In this document: positions 3,280-34,800 of the stretch, in pieces
How the letters are laid out: each line of letters opens with the position of its first letter
Position numbering within the stretch: the first letter of the stretch is position 1
Origin: Tagaea sp.
GTDB lineage: Bacteria > Pseudomonadota > Alphaproteobacteria > CACIAM-22H2
Assembly: GCA_044356395.1 (NCBI GenBank)
Contig: JBIKWI010000003.1
Span: 1 to 62,993 of the forward strand
DNA: 62,993 nucleotides
Reading direction: 5' to 3'
Notes under the pieces: generated by a model
Databases searched by the model: none
What the model saw: the letters and a program-made list of their open reading frames with translations, nothing else
What the model was told of the DNA's origin: nothing
Program-made: the position numbers and the translations under genes

Positions 3280-4700
3280 CACAGGCGATCCTCGGGGCGC
3301 TCACCGTCCTCGTCATGGCGCTGCTCGTGTGGCCGCTGCTGCGCCGCGCGGCACCCGTTCCCACGCGCGCGGCGTTCGACATGGAGATCTACCGCGACCA
3401 GCTCGCCGAGATCGCCCGCGATCTCGAACGCGGGACGATCACCCCGGACGAGGCGCGGGCCGCGCGCGCCGAGATCGGCCGGCGCATGCTCGCACTTGCC
3501 GACGGCGCTAGCACGCAGCCCGATTCCGGCGCGCCTGCCGACGCCAACGGCATCCGCTTCGTGGCCGTGGCGCTGGCGATTGTCGTGCCGGCGATCGCGT
3601 TCTCGGTGTACGGACGGCTGGGGTCGCCGACCCTGCCGGGCATGCCGATCGCCGAGCGGCGCGCGGTGGAACCCGCCCAGGGCCTGCCCGACCGCCAGCT
3701 TGCCGCCTTCGCGCGCGCGATGTTCGAGCGCGTCGGACGCGACCCCAAGGACCTGGAAGCATGGGTGCGTCTGGCGCAGGCGTCCGCCGCGATGAACCTT
3801 GCCGCCCAGGCGCTCGACGCGTGGCGCAAGGCCGACGAGATATCCGGCGGCCAGCCCGAGATCGCCGGCCTGCTCGGCGAGACGGCCGTCGCCGTTGCAA
3901 ACGGCGTGGTGACGCCGGAAGCCGAAGCCGCCTTCGCGCGCGTGCTGTCGGCCGACCCCGGCGATCCGCGCGCGCGCTACTATGCCGGTCTCGCGCGTGC
4001 GCAGGCCGGCGACCGGACCGACGCCGTGCGCGTGTGGTTCGACCTGATCGCCGCCTCGCCGCCCGATTCGCCGTGGGTGCCCACGGTGCGCGAGGCGATG
4101 GAACGCACCGCGCGCGAGGCGCGCATCGACCTGAAGCAGATGACCCCGTCGATGAAGAACCCGCCGGCCGTCGTGCGGCTCGGCGGCCCGCGCGTCGGCG
4201 GCGGCGGCGAGACCGTACCCGATCCCGGCGCGCTTGCCGCCCTTCCCGAAGGCGATCGGCTGGCGGCGATCCGCAGCATGGTCGACGGTCTTGCGGCGCG
4301 CCTCGAGACCCAGCCCGACGATCTCGACGGCTGGCGCCGGCTGGCGCGCTCGCGAAAGGTGCTGGGCGAGTCCGACAAGGCGCTTGCCGCCCACGCGCGC
4401 GCCGCGGCGATCGCCCCCGACGACGTCGAGGTGCTGCAGGACTATGCCGGCGCGCTGATCGACCTGCACGATCCCGAAAAGCCGCTCGACCCGCCCGCGC
4501 GTGCGGCGGTCGCCAACCTGTTGGCGAAATCGCCGAACGAAAGCGTGGCGCTGTGGCTGCTCGGCCAGGACGAGGCGCTCGCCGGCAAGGACATGGCCGC
4601 GACCGCGCTCTGGCAGCGCCTGCTGGCCCAGCTTCCGGCCGACAGTCCGGCCCATGCCGACCTGTCCGCCCGCATCGCGAAGCTGAAGGGCCGGAACTGA
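3276..4700 (+). CDS. ccmI: Cytochrome c-type biogenesis protein CcmI/CycH (TPR-containing)
   Basis: N-terminal TM helix and the DMEIYRDQLAEIARDLERGTI motif, followed by TPR-like repeats. The GTG at 3276 overlaps the ccmH stop. It is the last gene of the ccm cluster. Confidence 0.85.
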   Translation: MTQAILGALTVLVMALLVWPLLRRAAPVPTRAAFDMEIYRDQLAEIARDLERGTITPDEARAARAEIGRRMLALADGASTQPDSGAPADANGIRFVAVALAIVVPAIAFSVYGRLGSPTLPGMPIAERRAVEPAQGLPDRQLAAFARAMFERVGRDPKDLEAWVRLAQASAAMNLAAQALDAWRKADEISGGQPEIAGLLGETAVAVANGVVTPEAEAAFARVLSADPGDPRARYYAGLARAQAGDRTDAVRVWFDLIAASPPDSPWVPTVREAMERTAREARIDLKQMTPSMKNPPAVVRLGGPRVGGGGETVPDPGALAALPEGDRLAAIRSMVDGLAARLETQPDDLDGWRRLARSRKVLGESDKALAAHARAAAIAPDDVEVLQDYAGALIDLHDPEKPLDPPARAAVANLLAKSPNESVALWLLGQDEALAGKDMAATALWQRLLAQLPADSPAHADLSARIAKLKGRN

Positions 4701-4716
4701 CGCGGATCGCCGCGCT

Positions 4717-5175
4717 TCAGCCGCGCTTGTCGACCCTGTAGGCCGCCGCGAGGATGAAAGCGACGTCGCCCTTGGCGCCGGCGAGCGGCAGCGACAGGCG
4801 TTCCCACGTCTGCGGTTCCTCGCCCGGCCCGAACCAGCCGGCATAGACGCGCCAGTACGGGCGCTGCGTGCGGCGCACGAGCCGGTATTCGGCCGTCAGC
4901 AGGCTTGCCTGCTCGCTCGGCAGGTCCTCGACCGCCGTGCCCGTGAGATCGACGCCGAATGCCTTTCGGAATGTCGTCCCGTAGAAGCCGTAGCGGAAGC
5001 GCGACTGCGCCTTGACCTCGATGATGACGAGGTTGGCCGCCCATTCGGCCAGCCCCTCGACCGGGAATCCCTTGGTGCGCGGCGGCCCGCCGGAAGCCGG
5101 CGTCTGGTCGAGCCAGAAGCGGAACAACCGCCGCAGCACGTCGCTGTCGATGGTGCGCAGAAGCTCTTCGCTCAT
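4717..5175 (-). CDS. PAS_5/DUF1457-type PAS domain protein
   Basis: 152 aa. The FRFWLD..P.R..F..E.L..W..NLVIIEV....RFRYGFYG pattern recalls the small stand-alone PAS_5 proteins of alphaproteobacteria. A paralog lies at 51649..52176. Confidence 0.7.
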   Translation of the reverse strand: MSEELLRTIDSDVLRRLFRFWLDQTPASGGPPRTKGFPVEGLAEWAANLVIIEVKAQSRFRYGFYGTTFRKAFGVDLTGTAVEDLPSEQASLLTAEYRLVRRTQRPYWRVYAGWFGPGEEPQTWERLSLPLAGAKGDVAFILAAAYRVDKRG

Positions 5176-5246
5176 CGCAAATTCCGCTGTCCGTCCTGCA
5201 AATGGTGACTATCATCGGGATGTAGCAGCAAACCCGAACGGCCGCC

Positions 5247-6575
5247 ATGCAGAACCCGACGAAACCCAAGAAGACCCAGATCGTCGTCGTCGGCGGCGGG
5301 GCCGGCGGTCTCGAACTCGTCGCGCGCCTGGGGGCCACGTACGGGCGCGAGGAATACGACATCATCCTCGTCGAGCGGAACCGCACGCATGTCTGGAAGC
5401 CGCTGCTCCACGAAGTCGCGGCCGGCTCGCTCGACGCCAATCTCGACGAGGTCGGATATCGCAGCCACGCCTATCGCTGGGGCTACCGCTTCTTCGACGG
5501 CACGCTCGAGGGCATCGACCGCGAGACGCGCCACGTCGTGATCGCCCCCATGCTCGACGAGAAGGGCGTCGAGATCGTCGCCCGCCACCGCATCCGCTAC
5601 GACTATCTGGTGATCGCGGTGGGCTCCGTCTCCAACGATTTCGGCACGAAGGGCGTGCGCGCCAACTGCATCTTCCTCGACGAGCGGTCGCAGGCCGACC
5701 GCTTCCGCCAGATGCTGCTCAGCCAGTGCCTGCGCGTGTCGCGCGGCATGGCGGCCGACCCGCAGGCCGACCTGCATGTCGACGTCGCCATCGTCGGCGG
5801 CGGGGCGACGGGCGTGGAACTGGCGGCCGAGCTCTACAGTGCGGCCGCCGCCTTGCGCTTCTACGGTCTCGAGGTGTTCGACGAGAGCCGCCTGCGCATC
5901 ACGCTGGTGGAAGCGGGTCCGCGCATCCTGCCGGCCCTGCCCGAGAAGCTGGCGCAAGCCGCGCACGCGGAACTCGAAGCGCTCGGCGTGCGCGTGCTGA
6001 CCGGAACGCAAGTGACCGAGGTGGACGCGCGCGCCATCGTCACCAAAGGCGGCGAACGCATCGAGGCGGACCTTCGCGTGTGGGCCGCCGGCGTCAAGGG
6101 GGCCGAGTTCCTGAAAGACATCGGCGGGCTCGAGACCAACCGCAACAACCAGCTCGTCGTGCGGCCGACCTTGCAGACCACGCGCGACGAGCGCGTCTTC
6201 GCGATCGGCGACTGCTGCACATGCGTGCTGCCCGGCAGCGAGCGGCCCGTACCGCCGCGCGCCCAGTCGGCCCACCAGATGGCGTCGACCGCGTTCGAGA
6301 ACATCCGCCGGCTGATCGCCGGCCGGCCGCCGGTCGATTTCGTCTATCGCGACCACGGCTCGCTGGTCAGCCTCGCGCGCTACACGACGGTGGGAAGCCT
6401 GATGGGCAATCTCGTCGGCGGGCGCATGGCGGTCGAAGGGCGGCTCGCGCGACTCGTGTACGTATCGCTCTACCGGATGCACCTGATCGCGATCCACGGC
6501 TGGCTCAAGGGCCTGCTGCTGATCGCGGTCGGCCACGTCAACCAGGTGATCCGGCCGAAGCTGAAACTGCACTGA
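5247..6575 (+). CDS. ndh: Type II NADH:quinone oxidoreductase (NDH-2)
   Basis: 442 aa with two Rossmann GxGxxG motifs (VVVGGGAGG, IVGGGATGVE) and an NDH-2-like C-terminal region. Confidence 0.9.
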   Translation: MQNPTKPKKTQIVVVGGGAGGLELVARLGATYGREEYDIILVERNRTHVWKPLLHEVAAGSLDANLDEVGYRSHAYRWGYRFFDGTLEGIDRETRHVVIAPMLDEKGVEIVARHRIRYDYLVIAVGSVSNDFGTKGVRANCIFLDERSQADRFRQMLLSQCLRVSRGMAADPQADLHVDVAIVGGGATGVELAAELYSAAAALRFYGLEVFDESRLRITLVEAGPRILPALPEKLAQAAHAELEALGVRVLTGTQVTEVDARAIVTKGGERIEADLRVWAAGVKGAEFLKDIGGLETNRNNQLVVRPTLQTTRDERVFAIGDCCTCVLPGSERPVPPRAQSAHQMASTAFENIRRLIAGRPPVDFVYRDHGSLVSLARYTTVGSLMGNLVGGRMAVEGRLARLVYVSLYRMHLIAIHGWLKGLLLIAVGHVNQVIRPKLKLH

Positions 6576-31622: not shown

Positions 31623-32042
31623 CTAGCGCCCTCCCAGCACGGCAAGGCCCAGCGCCCAGGCGAGGATCGTCGCGGCGGCCGTGAACGCGATCACGGCCCA
31701 GCCGGATTTTTCCATCGTCGGCAGATCGAAGCCGTAGCCTGCGTCCCAGAACAGGTGCCGGATGCCGTTGGCGAGGTGATAGAATAGCGCCACCGACCAG
31801 CCGAACAGCAGCACCATGCCGATGCCCGAGCCGAGAAACGCGTTGACGCGCGCGAACGGCGTTTCGCCCGTCGCGGCAGCAACCAGCCAGATCGCCAGCA
31901 TCAGTGTGCCGACCGCCAGCGCCACGCCCGTGGCGCGATGGGTGATCGACAGGATCGACGTCATCTGCGGGCGGTAGACCTGCAGGTGCGGCGAAAGCGG
32001 TCGCGGATGCGATTTGACGGTGGTCTTCGATTCTGCGGCCAT
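31623..32042 (-). CDS. sdhC: Succinate dehydrogenase cytochrome b556 subunit SdhC
   Basis: Starts MAAESK..RPLSPHLQVYRPQMTSILSITHRATG. Trimmed from ORF 31623..32141. Confidence 0.9.
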   Translation of the reverse strand: MAAESKTTVKSHPRPLSPHLQVYRPQMTSILSITHRATGVALAVGTLMLAIWLVAAATGETPFARVNAFLGSGIGMVLLFGWSVALFYHLANGIRHLFWDAGYGFDLPTMEKSGWAVIAFTAAATILAWALGLAVLGGR

Positions 32043-32112
32043 GGCCCCTCGGTGTTCCTGATTGCGTGGCCGGTATTTGGCGGCCTTCGCAATTCTTCCC
32101 GGCAGGCTTAAG

Positions 32113-32141
32113 GATTTAGACCGTGCATCCGGGCGCGTCAA
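32113..32141 (-). promoter_or_regulatory. Candidate sdhCDAB promoter
   Basis: On the minus strand: TTGACG (32141-32136), a 17-nt spacer, TAAATC (32118-32113). This is ~70 nt upstream of the sdhC ATG. Confidence 0.4.
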
Positions 32142-32336
32142 TTGATGGGTTTGCCGCGCGCGACGAGAAGCTTACCGCATCTGCGAACGTTTCGCTGTGG
32201 ATTGACCTGTGGAAGAAGTGTGCGTGGATTGTGACTAACGCGGATTTCCATCAACAAGATTCTGGGGTCGTGCGGCGGATTCGGATTGGCTGCCATGCGC
32301 GAGTTTGAGACCATCATCTCCGGTAAGCGAAAGCGG

Positions 32337-33108
32337 GGAGCGACAAGACGGCAGCGATCCTTCTCCAGCGTGTCCGGTAGCTAGGACGCGATCCACTGGC
32401 AGGAGCCGCCCCCGAAAGGGTGGCGGCGCGGGAAGGACGGGGTCGGGGCGTCGCTCCGGAGCGGTCGCCGGAAGCACGGCGCAAGCCGGGCAAAAGGCGG
32501 CAACTCCTTTCCCTTCGTGACGGTCGGTCGGCTCCCCTGGGGGCTTGCCCACGTCAGCGCGGAGGGACGGCGTCGACGGATCCGCGCGGTGCGGGGATCC
32601 AGGCCGACGGTCGGGGTCGCGAGGGTCCCGCAAGGGACCGGCGGGTACGGCGGTGACGGCGGGGCGGACCCAAGGGGTCCAGGAACCCGCGACCGGCGGA
32701 CCGGCTGCGAGGCACGCGAAGGCAGGTGCGAAAGCGCCGCCCGGCGAGGCTCGCGCGAGGCCCGGGTCAGGTCTGGGGCCGTGTTGCAGGCAAGGGTCGG
32801 ACGTCTCGGGTTCGGGTTCCGGCGGGCCGCGCGTGGCCATCGGGACCCTCGTCGGGGGGACGCGGACGGGACGGGCGGACCAGGGCCTGACCGGACGTGC
32901 GAAGCAGGCCTCCCGAAGGAAGACCCGGGTTTTCGGCTGCCATGGGGCGGCCGGCGTCTCGCGCAGGCGGGGTGTCGGTGGTGTCGGATGCGGGCGTGCA
33001 CGCCTGCTTCGACGGTCCTCGCGAGGCGTCAGGGAGCCCTTTGTCCCGCCCGGACATCGGCCGATCGCAAGATCGCCCCTGACGCCTCTTCATTTTTGGG
33101 GATTTTTT
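32337..33108 (+). ncRNA. Candidate large structured non-coding RNA (unclassified; boundaries approximate)
   Basis: No credible ORF. There is plus-strand G>C skew, nested long-range helices, at least five GNRA-capped hairpins in plus sense, and a terminal 11-bp helix followed by T5/T6 runs. Details are in the findings. Confidence 0.3.
33024..33108 (+). terminator. Terminator-like three-way structure followed by T-runs
   Basis: AGGCGTCAGGG (33024-33034) pairs perfectly with CCCTGACGCCT (33077-33087). It encloses hairpins TGTCC-CGCCC-GGACA and CGATC-GCAA-GATCG and is followed by CTTCATTTTTGGGGATTTTTTGGGG. Confidence 0.35.
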
Positions 33109-33537
33109 GGGGATCGGAGGGCGAGGTGGTGCCGACGGCCCCCTCGCGAAGACCGCCGGCACCCCATCGGCACGTCGGAGCCTGATGTCCCGCCCGGACA
33201 ACTCGGCGCGAAGGCTAGAAGACTTCGCTTTCCTGACGGAATTTGCGTAACACGCCCCCTCCCCCCCGCCAATCGGATTTTGGGAAATTTGCCATTCTCA
33301 ATTATATCAATAGCTTGACGAAAATACCCCGCGGCTGCGGCCTCGCGTCGGGGGTCGAGTCGCTTTTCCGGCCTCATCGCGTCGGCCATTGAATTAATTC
33401 GATAATCCGCTCTCGGCCGGCCGGTGACGGGGCCGGTGCCGACAAAATCCGGGGCGGCCGGCAAAACCTGTCAAGTGTCGGGACCGGCAGAGGTTTCGCT
33501 TCGCCGCCGCCCGGATCGCGGCTACACCTCGCCCCCC

Positions 33538-34800
33538 ATGGAAGAAACGGTCGAACTGGAAATCCGCAAGCTGGGTGCAAGCGGCGACGGCATCGCCGAC
33601 GGCCCGCTTTTCGTGCCCGGCGCCCTGCCCGGCGAGCGCGTACGCGCCCAGCGCTTCGGCAAGGACCGCGCGCGCGCGGTGGAGATCCTGACGAAGTCGC
33701 CCGACCGCGTCGACCCGCCCTGCCCGCATTTCCATTCGTGCGGCGGCTGTGCGGTCCAGCATCTGGCCGAAGCACCCTACGTCGCGTGGAAGCAGGGGCT
33801 GCTCGTCGCGGCACTTTCCGCGCGCGGCCTCGACATCAAGCCTGCCCCCATGCTGCGCATCGCGGGCGGTACGCGCCGGCGCGCGGAGCTTTCCGCCCTG
33901 CGCACGCAAGGCGGCGTCACGCTCGGCTTCCACACCGAAGGAAGCGGCGAGCTTGTCGACATCCAGTCGTGCCTGGTGCTGCTGCCGAAAATCGTGTCGC
34001 TGCTGCCGGCACTGCGCGCTTTCCTGATCGATTTCCTGCGGACCGCCGAGACGTTCGACATCCACGTGACGGCCGCCGACAACGGCATCGACCTTCTGCT
34101 CACCGGACGCAGCCCCGATGCGCGCAAGCGCGCCTCGCTCGCCGACTTCGCCGCTGCCAACGGCATCGTGCGCATCGCCTGGCGGCGCGAAGCAGGCGAA
34201 GAGCCGGAGATCGTCGTGCTGCACGAAAGCCCGCGCGTTTCCTTCGGCACGGTCGAGGTGGTCCCGCCGCCCGGCGCCTTCCTGCAGGCCGCACGCCCCG
34301 CCGAACTCGCCATCGCGTCGGAGATCGCAGCATCCGTCGGCCGCGCCAAACGCATCGTCGATCTCTATGCCGGGCTGGGCACGTTCTCGTTCCCGCTCAC
34401 CGGCCGCGTGCACGCGGTCGAGGGCGATGCGGCGGCGAGTGCGGCCATGCAGGCGGGGGCGCGCGCCGGCTTCCGTGCGGGCCGCGTGACGTGCGAGGCG
34501 CGCGATCTCGAGCGCCGGCCGCTGCTGGCCGAAGAACTCGACGAATACGACGCGGCGATCTTCGATCCGCCGCGCGAAGGGGCACGCGAGCAGGCGACGT
34601 ATCTCGCCGCTTCGTCCGTACCCGTCGTCGTCGCGGTGTCGTGCAATCCGGCGAGCTTCGCGCGCGACGCGCGCGTGCTGGTGGACGGCGGCTACACGCT
34701 GGCGCGCGTCGTGCCCGTCGACCAGTTCCTGTGGACGGGCCACCTCGAACTGGTCGCGACCTTCACGAAGCCCAAGAAGGCCCGCGTCCCGCGGCGTTAG
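33538..34800 (+). CDS. Class I SAM-dependent RNA (uracil-5-)methyltransferase, RlmD/RumA-TrmA family
   Basis: TRAM-like N-terminus (GDGIADGPLFVPGALPGERV), Fe-S Cys cluster CPHFHSCGGCAVQHL, a SAM motif DLYAGLGTFS and catalytic VSCNPASFARD. Trimmed from ORF 33424..34800. Confidence 0.85.
   Translation: MEETVELEIRKLGASGDGIADGPLFVPGALPGERVRAQRFGKDRARAVEILTKSPDRVDPPCPHFHSCGGCAVQHLAEAPYVAWKQGLLVAALSARGLDIKPAPMLRIAGGTRRRAELSALRTQGGVTLGFHTEGSGELVDIQSCLVLLPKIVSLLPALRAFLIDFLRTAETFDIHVTAADNGIDLLLTGRSPDARKRASLADFAAANGIVRIAWRREAGEEPEIVVLHESPRVSFGTVEVVPPPGAFLQAARPAELAIASEIAASVGRAKRIVDLYAGLGTFSFPLTGRVHAVEGDAAASAAMQAGARAGFRAGRVTCEARDLERRPLLAEELDEYDAAIFDPPREGAREQATYLAASSVPVVVAVSCNPASFARDARVLVDGGYTLARVVPVDQFLWTGHLELVATFTKPKKARVPRR

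Follow-up and report, generated by a model that had tools for sequence, protein, structure and literature searches.

What occupies the long interval upstream of the succinate dehydrogenase gene sdhC in Tagaea sp.? In the stretch of contig JBIKWI010000003.1 analysed here (62,993 nt, hereafter the window), the start of sdhC (32042, minus strand) and that of the next gene (33538, plus strand), which encodes an RlmD/RumA-like methyltransferase, lie 1495 bp apart. This re-measurement agrees with the long gap reported in a preliminary description of the sequence, where positions 32337-33108, referred to below as the block, had been put forward as a candidate large structured RNA. Our analysis assigns a probability of about 0.8 to the reading that 32322-33097 on the plus strand constitutes a gene in its own right, encoding a large (~776 nt), multi-domain structured non-coding RNA, a call based on conservation, covariation, non-coding character and the lack of an Rfam match. 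The source of the window is a freshwater Tagaea-like alphaproteobacterium; an SdhC identical to that of the window is encoded by many metagenome contigs in JGI, ENA and NCBI, and the nearest genomes are Tagaea metagenome-assembled genomes (MAGs).

Homologous loci were gathered in three ways, namely by an SdhC-based genome scan, through contigs bearing the spurious open reading frames (ORFs) of the region, and by one DNA-pattern scan of metagenomes. In three Tagaea relatives (L011, L013 and L012), the DNA of the block is 91.8, 90.2 and 87.8% identical to that of the window. The corresponding values are 93.6, 84.0 and 85.3% for sdhC and 91.5, 87.3 and 87.1% for the methyltransferase gene, and those of the adjoining spacer (85, 81 and 80%) are clearly below the block. 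The block is under purifying selection and as conserved as the coding genes beside it, which settles the question, raised in the preliminary description, of whether relatives preserve it.

Conservation of this kind could also be that of a protein-coding gene, or of its decayed remnant, represented by Pro/Arg/Gly-rich ORFs. Indeed, gene callers have annotated a 201-aa ORF (32235-32840, minus) on 24 contigs, as well as further ORFs in relatives, and long open frames are present in all six frames of the block. However, long chance ORFs are expected at 73-76% G+C, and not one of the frames is kept through the alignment of relatives, because 1-nt indels shift every frame between them. Each close relative differs from the block by 7-9 single-base indels per 772 nt, compared with gap openings in the flanking genes that range from 0 (sdhA in L011 and the methyltransferase gene) to 2 (sdhC). 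The substitutions are likewise spread flatly over the three codon positions (21/22/17, 23/23/23 and 29/32/26 in the three relatives). When the two longest frames were compared with 5.8 billion proteins, the only matches were ORFs of the same locus in relatives, and no Pfam domain was found. Frameshifting indels and codon-position statistics exclude even a decayed coding sequence and, together with the protein searches, bear out the earlier judgement that the Pro/Arg/Gly ORFs are non-coding; a coding origin of the block can be regarded as next to impossible.

That the constraint acts on a folded RNA is supported by covariation. An alignment of 11 species (66-92% identity) yielded, by RNAalifold, a consensus structure of 248 pairs, 53 of which carry compensatory double changes. 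As a control that preserves relatedness, the 3′ partners were displaced by 1-3 columns; in these slid controls 37-48% of the cells were paired and 10-17 pairs had double changes, compared with 95.8% and 53 in the true register. The covariation score of 0.204 likewise exceeded that of the controls (0.04-0.07), and the observed values were reached by none of 500 shuffles. After re-alignment of the 3′ third with 16 sequences, 97.2% of the cells were paired and the score was 0.241, against at most 0.08 in the controls. Covariation among relatives, for which the preliminary description had suggested looking, is thus abundant and far above these controls.

The same alignment reveals which strand is selected. 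The paired columns contain 347 G-U/U-G cells versus 23 A-C/C-A cells, and this excess of G-U over A-C identifies the plus strand as the selected one. In line with this, the plus strand folds with a minimum free energy of -446 kcal/mol (z = -3.6 versus shuffles), compared with -364 for the minus strand, which is not better than shuffles (z = -1.5), and the terminal helix is followed by a U-tract in the plus sense only. A plus-sense structured RNA had previously been proposed from the strand composition of the block. The G and C counts on which this rested (G30/C17, G29/C18 and G31/C19 in three 60-nt lines) proved exact on recount, and the proposal is now supported by covariation, the G-U/A-C asymmetry and the fold z-scores. 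Over 32337-33108 the G+C content is about 72.7-77% with a G-skew of +0.14, and 772-nt frames placed over the block have the highest G-skew anywhere in the window.

Structure at the DNA level offers another explanation for such a block, in the form of palindromes resembling repetitive extragenic palindromic (REP) sequences or bacterial interspersed mosaic elements (BIME), of a mobile-element remnant, or of a CRISPR-like array. It would account for the many G+C-rich hairpins and for a 15-nt hairpin core that occurs twice, at 33042 and 33186. In Rfam 15 (4227 families), a search of the whole window at the gathering threshold found two transfer RNAs (tRNAs) only, and in E-value mode over 32000-33600 the best match was indeed a CRISPR repeat model, a fragment of CRISPR-DR20, with a sub-threshold 22.5 bits (threshold 42; E = 0.09). 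Against this, the G-U versus A-C asymmetry reflects selection on one RNA strand and not on duplex DNA. Within the 63 kb window and the 110 fetched loci, the 15-nt core is the only part of the block to recur, each locus has one copy, and over this range the block does not dissolve into dispersed repeats. The pattern of the terminal junction described below, searched against the IMG/VR viral contigs, returned three unrelated hairpins and no real match. A feature of the DNA itself is accordingly extremely improbable, and the structured RNA remains the preferred reading. The Rfam results also agree with the earlier failure to recognize the core of RNase P, transfer-messenger RNA, 6S RNA, an intron or a riboswitch. 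SRP RNA, OLE, GOLLD, ROOL, HEARO, raiA and the alphaproteobacterial small RNAs were likewise among the families that gave no match.

Within the predicted RNA, a long-range closing helix joins 32333-36 to 33017-22 and encloses a fold of ~16 hairpins in total, several of them with GNRA loops. The helices 32337-44/32450-57 and 33024-34/33077-87 listed in the preliminary description are both perfect complements, and its GNRA hairpins (32477-88, 32624-39, 32725-38 and 33062-75) and T5/T6 runs are all present. Most of the helices named there survive the comparison with relatives; the exception is 32360-68/32396-405, which is not the conserved pairing. This helix was rejected, as the relatives keep the hairpin UCC-ACUGGCA-GGA and 32356-65 pairs with 32430-38. 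A long-range pairing of 32893-909 with 33002-18, proposed by a repeat finder, was rejected as well; it is specific to the window and lacking in relatives, in which a local hairpin covaries instead.

The ends of the RNA can be placed by conservation. After a variable stretch, the invariant RNA sequence begins with CGGTAAGCG (32320-28), the predicted 5′ start motif being GYAMGCGARAGCG at window position ~32322, and at the other side conservation falls for ~20 nt past the terminal junction and its U-tract. The limits originally given for the block are corrected accordingly: conservation places the start ~15 nt further upstream, near 32322, and the end in the first U-run, at ~33097. Just upstream of the invariant RNA bases, a cross-genus alignment shows TTGnnn, a spacer of 17-18 nt and G.GA...T, in which A2 and T6 never vary and their spacing is constant. 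In the window this corresponds to a putative sigma-70-type promoter on the plus strand at 32286-32314, with the -35 element TTGGCT (32286-91), a 17-nt spacer, TG at 32306-07 and the -10 element GACCAT (32309-14). TTGGCT-N17-GACCAT would thus be a weak promoter from which transcription may start near G32322.

Further upstream, a conserved block on the plus strand (32196-32256) is invariant or nearly so in the three types of loci distinguished below (Tagaea, L027 and Pelagibius types). It contains TGTGGA at 32196-201 and again at 32208-213, giving TGTGGA-N6-TGTGGA, followed by TGTG (32219-22), TGTGAC (32230-35) and an inverted ATCAACA/ATGCACA box (ATCAACA 32250-56), with a repeat spacing of 10-13 bp. 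It is likely that this array serves as an operator or regulator-binding site of the RNA promoter. The boxes do, however, contain the core of a DnaA box (TGTGNATAA / TTATNCACA), and in some lineages perfect 9-mers are found, e.g., TTATGCACA in L024 and L025. This brings up a replication- or DnaA-linked function, whereby DnaA would bind TGTGGA/TTATSMACA as its boxes and the G-rich transcript would engage in an R-loop or else titrate or regulate DnaA, in the manner of ColE1 RNA II priming or of datA/DARS. The G-rich transcript and the flanking spacers, which have the lowest G+C content of the region, would suit such a function. ColE1 RNA II is a structured, G-rich, R-loop-forming primer transcript of several hundred nt beside protein-binding repeats, and in these respects the two look alike; the likeness is one of resemblance only, in that plasmid or origin context and a switch of GC skew are absent at our locus. 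Moreover, a single site (32230-38) is within one mismatch of TTATNCACA, the TGTGGA boxes have two mismatches, so that the sites do not make up a DnaA-box cluster, and box matches over the window stay below the chance expectation. G-richness, finally, is common in structured RNAs. A link to replication hence appears very unlikely, and an operator of an RNA promoter is the better description of the array.

Several unpaired segments of the RNA are constant where the helices around them vary. The hairpin loop ACUGGCA (32395-32401) is invariant, while its 3-bp stem changes from UA to GC and from CG to UA in five sequences. Near the 3′ end (32877-32908), the loop GGACCAGGG (32877-85) and the internal loop GUGCGAAGCAGG (32897-908) are identical in 29 of 29 loci of the Tagaea clade, and the surrounding helices covary. 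These two motifs are candidate sites of tertiary contact or of ligand or protein binding. A further complementarity was observed between the invariant loop ACUGGCAG and the CUGCCA that is conserved in the GGCUGCC hairpin (32938-32943 and 32397-32404); the L107-type variant UUGCCG would still pair with ACUGGCAG via wobbles. This complementarity could represent a tertiary kissing contact.

The 3′ end is formed by a three-way junction (33023-33088), which is essentially invariant in the Tagaea clade, with few differences (e.g., at 33029/33082, U-A/U-G, and at 33057). It consists of a 12-bp outer helix (33023-34/33077-88), hairpin A (UGUCC-CGCCC-GGACA, 33042-56, within a GCC/GGC helix) and hairpin B (CGAUC-GCAA-GAUCG, 33062-75). 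A U-rich tract follows directly at 33089-33108 (UUCAUUUUU GGGGA UUUUUU, read directly from the sequence). The combination of a G+C-rich helix and the U-tract UUCAUUUUU is that of an intrinsic terminator; a simple terminator scan missed it, because its 'loop' is a branched insert of 42 nt. A helix followed by T-runs agrees with the terminator-like 3′ end first described, and lineages of the Tagaea and L027 types retain the U-rich tail. We therefore infer that junction and U-tract probably act as an intrinsic terminator in the Tagaea lineage.

How far does this RNA extend beyond Tagaea? The 15-nt core of hairpin A, TGTCCCGCCCGGACA, is also found upstream of sdhC in L027, L040 and L059, three genomes of greater distance, whose alignment shows the upstream block, the 5′ start CCGGTACGCGA and the junction as in Tagaea, with a shorter body. 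A covariance model built from the 5′ domain of Tagaea detected L059 with E = 6e-5 and L027 with E = 0.47, both at the expected position. A looser search for TGTGGA-N6-TGTGG plus an analogous junction upstream of sdhC further retrieved Pelagibius (L017 and L029), L025, L038 and L024. L038 is a Kiloniellales MAG, and L029 (Pelagibius sp. 7325) is a cultured isolate. In total, the upstream block and the terminal junction occur together upstream of sdhC in 12 of 80 fetched sdhC loci, and their distance and orientation match. In the distant lineages, the outer junction helix keeps its sequence with one exchange of A-U to G-C, the stem of hairpin A is retained below a pyrimidine-rich loop, and hairpin B shows covariation. 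The Pelagibius-type body measures ~0.95 kb, and the counterpart in L029 is at 4685-5665 (minus strand). The Pelagibius-type RNA is strongly structured in its own right; it folds with z = -5.1, and 66 of 308 pairs are compensated among three sequences. A search of Rfam with the Pelagibius counterpart gave no meaningful match.

Some features of these counterparts were noted in passing. Those of Pelagibius and Kiloniellales (L029, L017, L025, L038 and L024) are longer or differently built and rich in UUCG-type loops, a conserved stretch GATTCAACTAAATTTTGTGGTG follows them, and their UGCGAAG motif is seemingly common with the GUGCGAAGCAGG motif of Tagaea. In addition, the 5′-domain covariance model gave a weak match (E = 1.7) in an alphaproteobacterial MAG, at 5134-5264 (minus) of L048 and ~740 nt upstream of sdhC, which may be a further diverged member of the family.

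The persistent proximity to sdhC suggests a cis-acting partner of sdhCDAB, that is, a divergent promoter-associated transcript that tunes the expression of succinate dehydrogenase, either by being transcribed or by local action of the RNA. In every lineage with flanks, the RNA indeed lies immediately upstream of and divergent from sdhC, with the two promoter regions back-to-back within ~180 bp. Transcription alone, however, would not select ~250 covarying pairs and invariant loops over 776 nt, and there is no overlap between the RNA and sdhC. In L059, a membrane-protein-like coding region of ~1 kb (~1070-2300) is inserted between sdhC and the TGTGGA block and leaves the RNA intact; therefore, the upstream block travels with the RNA and not with sdhC. 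The synteny may reflect just vertical inheritance of the sdh-citE neighbourhood. A cis-acting role thus seems unlikely, if the least so of the alternatives considered here.

On the other side of the RNA, its orientation is that of the methyltransferase gene, and a terminator-like structure between the two could attenuate, so that the block might be a long riboswitch-like leader or attenuator of the RlmD-like gene. A precedent for the arrangement exists in the smtA 'Soda Lake' large RNA, which likewise lies upstream of a S-adenosylmethionine (SAM) methyltransferase gene (PMC11109978). Yet the gene downstream of the RNA varies: it is different or convergent in L102/L103/L107, L027 and L040, and the methyltransferase gene takes this place in part of the Tagaea clade only. 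Furthermore, the start codon is ~440 bp away from the terminator, with a separate conserved element in this interval, and 776 nt is far above any riboswitch size. A leader function is in our view highly improbable, even more so than a role in replication. In all lineages, one RNA copy per locus occupies a fixed syntenic site. The comparison favours a stand-alone gene, in which the inherited unit appears to be the upstream block plus the RNA, set in a conserved sdh/HpcH-HpaI-family (sdh-citE) neighbourhood. From these alignments and syntenies, Tagaea, the L027/L040/L059 clade, L024, Kiloniellales and Pelagibius appear to possess a 0.6-1 kb RNA family that is vertically inherited upstream of sdhC.

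The separate element just mentioned (block 2, 33116-33290, plus strand) is a conserved non-coding stretch of ~170 nt that starts ~25 nt past the terminator. It is composed of a variable hairpin closed by a GGUGCCG/CGGCACC stem, a second hairpin with the stem GCGAAG/CUUCGC and the C-rich tract CCCCCUCCCCCCC. The module GCC-UGUCC-CGCCC-GGACA-GGC, whose first copy constitutes hairpin A of the junction (33042), recurs in block 2 at 33186-200. Block 2 is conserved in Tagaea-type and L027/L040/L059 loci and absent from the Pelagibius type, and the Rfam search in E-value mode over 32000-33600 produced no match for it. An alignment by MAFFT and RNAalifold contained no compensatory pairs, because the variable hairpin is misaligned; the folds of single sequences concur in the architecture. 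In L103, the RNA terminator is separated from block 2 by a 414-aa gene (3813-5057, minus), so the large RNA and block 2 can occur apart. Taken together, block 2 is probably a separate companion small RNA, and the module common to it and the junction suggests a shared binding partner.

Bacterial non-coding RNAs of more than ~500 nt with complex folds are rare and comprise the ribosomal RNAs, RNase P, transfer-messenger RNA, group I/II introns, OLE, GOLLD, ROOL and HEARO. Some of these large classes are catalysts and machines of ancient origin; the others are unsolved puzzles, from which unexpected architectures have recently emerged. GOLLD and ROOL usually occur in association with prophages and near tRNA genes. 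The RNA described here occupies a fixed chromosomal slot by sdhCDAB with the nearest tRNAs more than 19 kb away, and in this it is unlike both. GOLLD and ROOL are ~580-800 nt long, possess ornate, multi-domain, tetraloop-rich folds and were first seen in lake and environmental metagenomes (PMC12286853); the present RNA resembles them in size class, ornate fold and first appearance in environmental metagenomes. OLE RNA (RF01071) is a ~600-nt bacterial non-coding RNA with covarying helices and invariant unpaired stretches, which is chromosomal, present in single copy and vertically inherited within its clade (PMC9723947, PMC12286853). All of these properties, as well as large size and an unknown biochemical function, are common to OLE and the RNA of this locus. 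In contrast, OLE belongs to Firmicutes and is encoded with the partner genes oapA and others, while our RNA is alphaproteobacterial, and no membrane-protein or dedicated protein gene in the manner of co-located oapA/oapB/oapC is conserved with it.

A further RNA for comparison is the smtA motif ('Soda Lake RNA') of Thioalkalivibrio, a high-ranking candidate for a large structured non-coding RNA of more than 350 nt with covariation support, which occupies a divergent intergenic region and has a gene for a SAM-dependent methyltransferase downstream of it (PMC11109978). Both are lineage-restricted, covarying RNAs in a divergent intergenic position and of unknown function. By its description the smtA motif is nevertheless set apart, as it is found in a different host group, the Gammaproteobacteria, and has half the size, and the family described here has no constant methyltransferase neighbour. 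The earlier likening of the block to OLE, GOLLD and ROOL without a claim of homology was apt as a description, and no homology was found. Because a model match, partner genes and a phage or tRNA context are all lacking, we class the RNA as a new family, distinct from OLE, GOLLD and ROOL, within a known kind, the large structured bacterial non-coding RNAs. In the literature searched, no RNA was found described for this locus or for these taxa.

With regard to its mode of action, the RNA would be transcribed away from sdhCDAB from its own regulated promoter, TTGGCT-N17-GACCAT, behind the TGTGGA/TGTG boxes. Its fold would clamp the 5′ end to the region just before the 3′ three-way junction, at which the RNA would end and which would double as the intrinsic terminator in this lineage. 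The functional sites may be the invariant unpaired motifs ACUGGCA, GGACCAGGG and GUGCGAAGCAGG, and the 3′ module UGUCC-CGCCC-GGACA could be a recognition site common to the RNA and its ~170-nt neighbour. We tentatively suggest, at distinctly less than even odds, that the RNA is stable and acts in trans through its three-dimensional fold, probably as a ribonucleoprotein.

A number of points weigh against the picture of a stand-alone structured RNA as drawn above. The structures behind the covariation statistics were predicted from the very alignments that were then scored, and the sequences represent only ~5-6 independent lineages, so that many compensatory cells reflect inheritance; independent events are fewer than the counts suggest, but the margin over the relatedness-preserving controls is still large. 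The bodies of the Tagaea-type and Pelagibius-type RNAs cannot be aligned, and membership of the Pelagibius type would follow from the upstream block, 5′ start, junction and synteny instead of the core. The 5′-domain covariance model likewise stops at the L059/L027 type and does not reach the Pelagibius type, so that homology of the body across the whole family is unproven. The Pelagibius type also has no U-tract, meaning that the junction is not a terminator in every lineage. We infer the promoter rather than recognize it, because a strict sigma-70 consensus scan gave none at this site, and the proposed -10 element is weak. Expression, ends and abundance of the RNA are predictions, and there is no pointer to a specific biochemical function or partner protein.

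It is conceivable, at somewhat under even odds, that this RNA founds a new class of large ornate bacterial RNAs (0.6-1 kb) with a role of its own, be it as a ribonucleoprotein machine, a ribozyme or a self-assembling architecture. It would have been maintained for a long time beside sdhCDAB in several Rhodospirillales-type families, together with a satellite small RNA that shares a hairpin, and its control through TGTGGA (DnaA-box-like) sites would be tied to the cell cycle or to respiration. If so, the class would stand on a par with OLE, ROOL and GOLLD. Its distribution over a few alphaproteobacterial lineages limits the interest. Covariation, a promoter-like block, invariant single-stranded motifs and a companion hairpin make a further large-RNA class a worthwhile target for studies of structure and function, and the cultured member (Pelagibius sp. 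7325, L029) makes the family experimentally accessible.

There is also a consequence for annotation. Public gene calls over the RNA consist of 'hypothetical proteins' of 201-398 aa on either strand, in this species and in relatives (P0002-P0009); in the window, the ORFs under such calls are the 201-aa frame cited above and 32381-33001 (minus). These annotations over the RNA locus, which affect public assemblies, are almost certainly spurious.

As to the surroundings, the neighbouring genes in the window are sdhCDAB, the rlmD-like gene, and genes for an HpcH/HpaI-family protein, a YgjP-like protein and a major facilitator superfamily (MFS) transporter. Two conserved boxes, GTCAATTGA and GGATTTAGACC, are present at 32098-32146 and read on the minus strand as a -35 element TTGACG and a -10 element CTAAAT. 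They are likely to be the promoter of sdhC, ~65 nt upstream of its start codon and back-to-back with the promoter region of the RNA.

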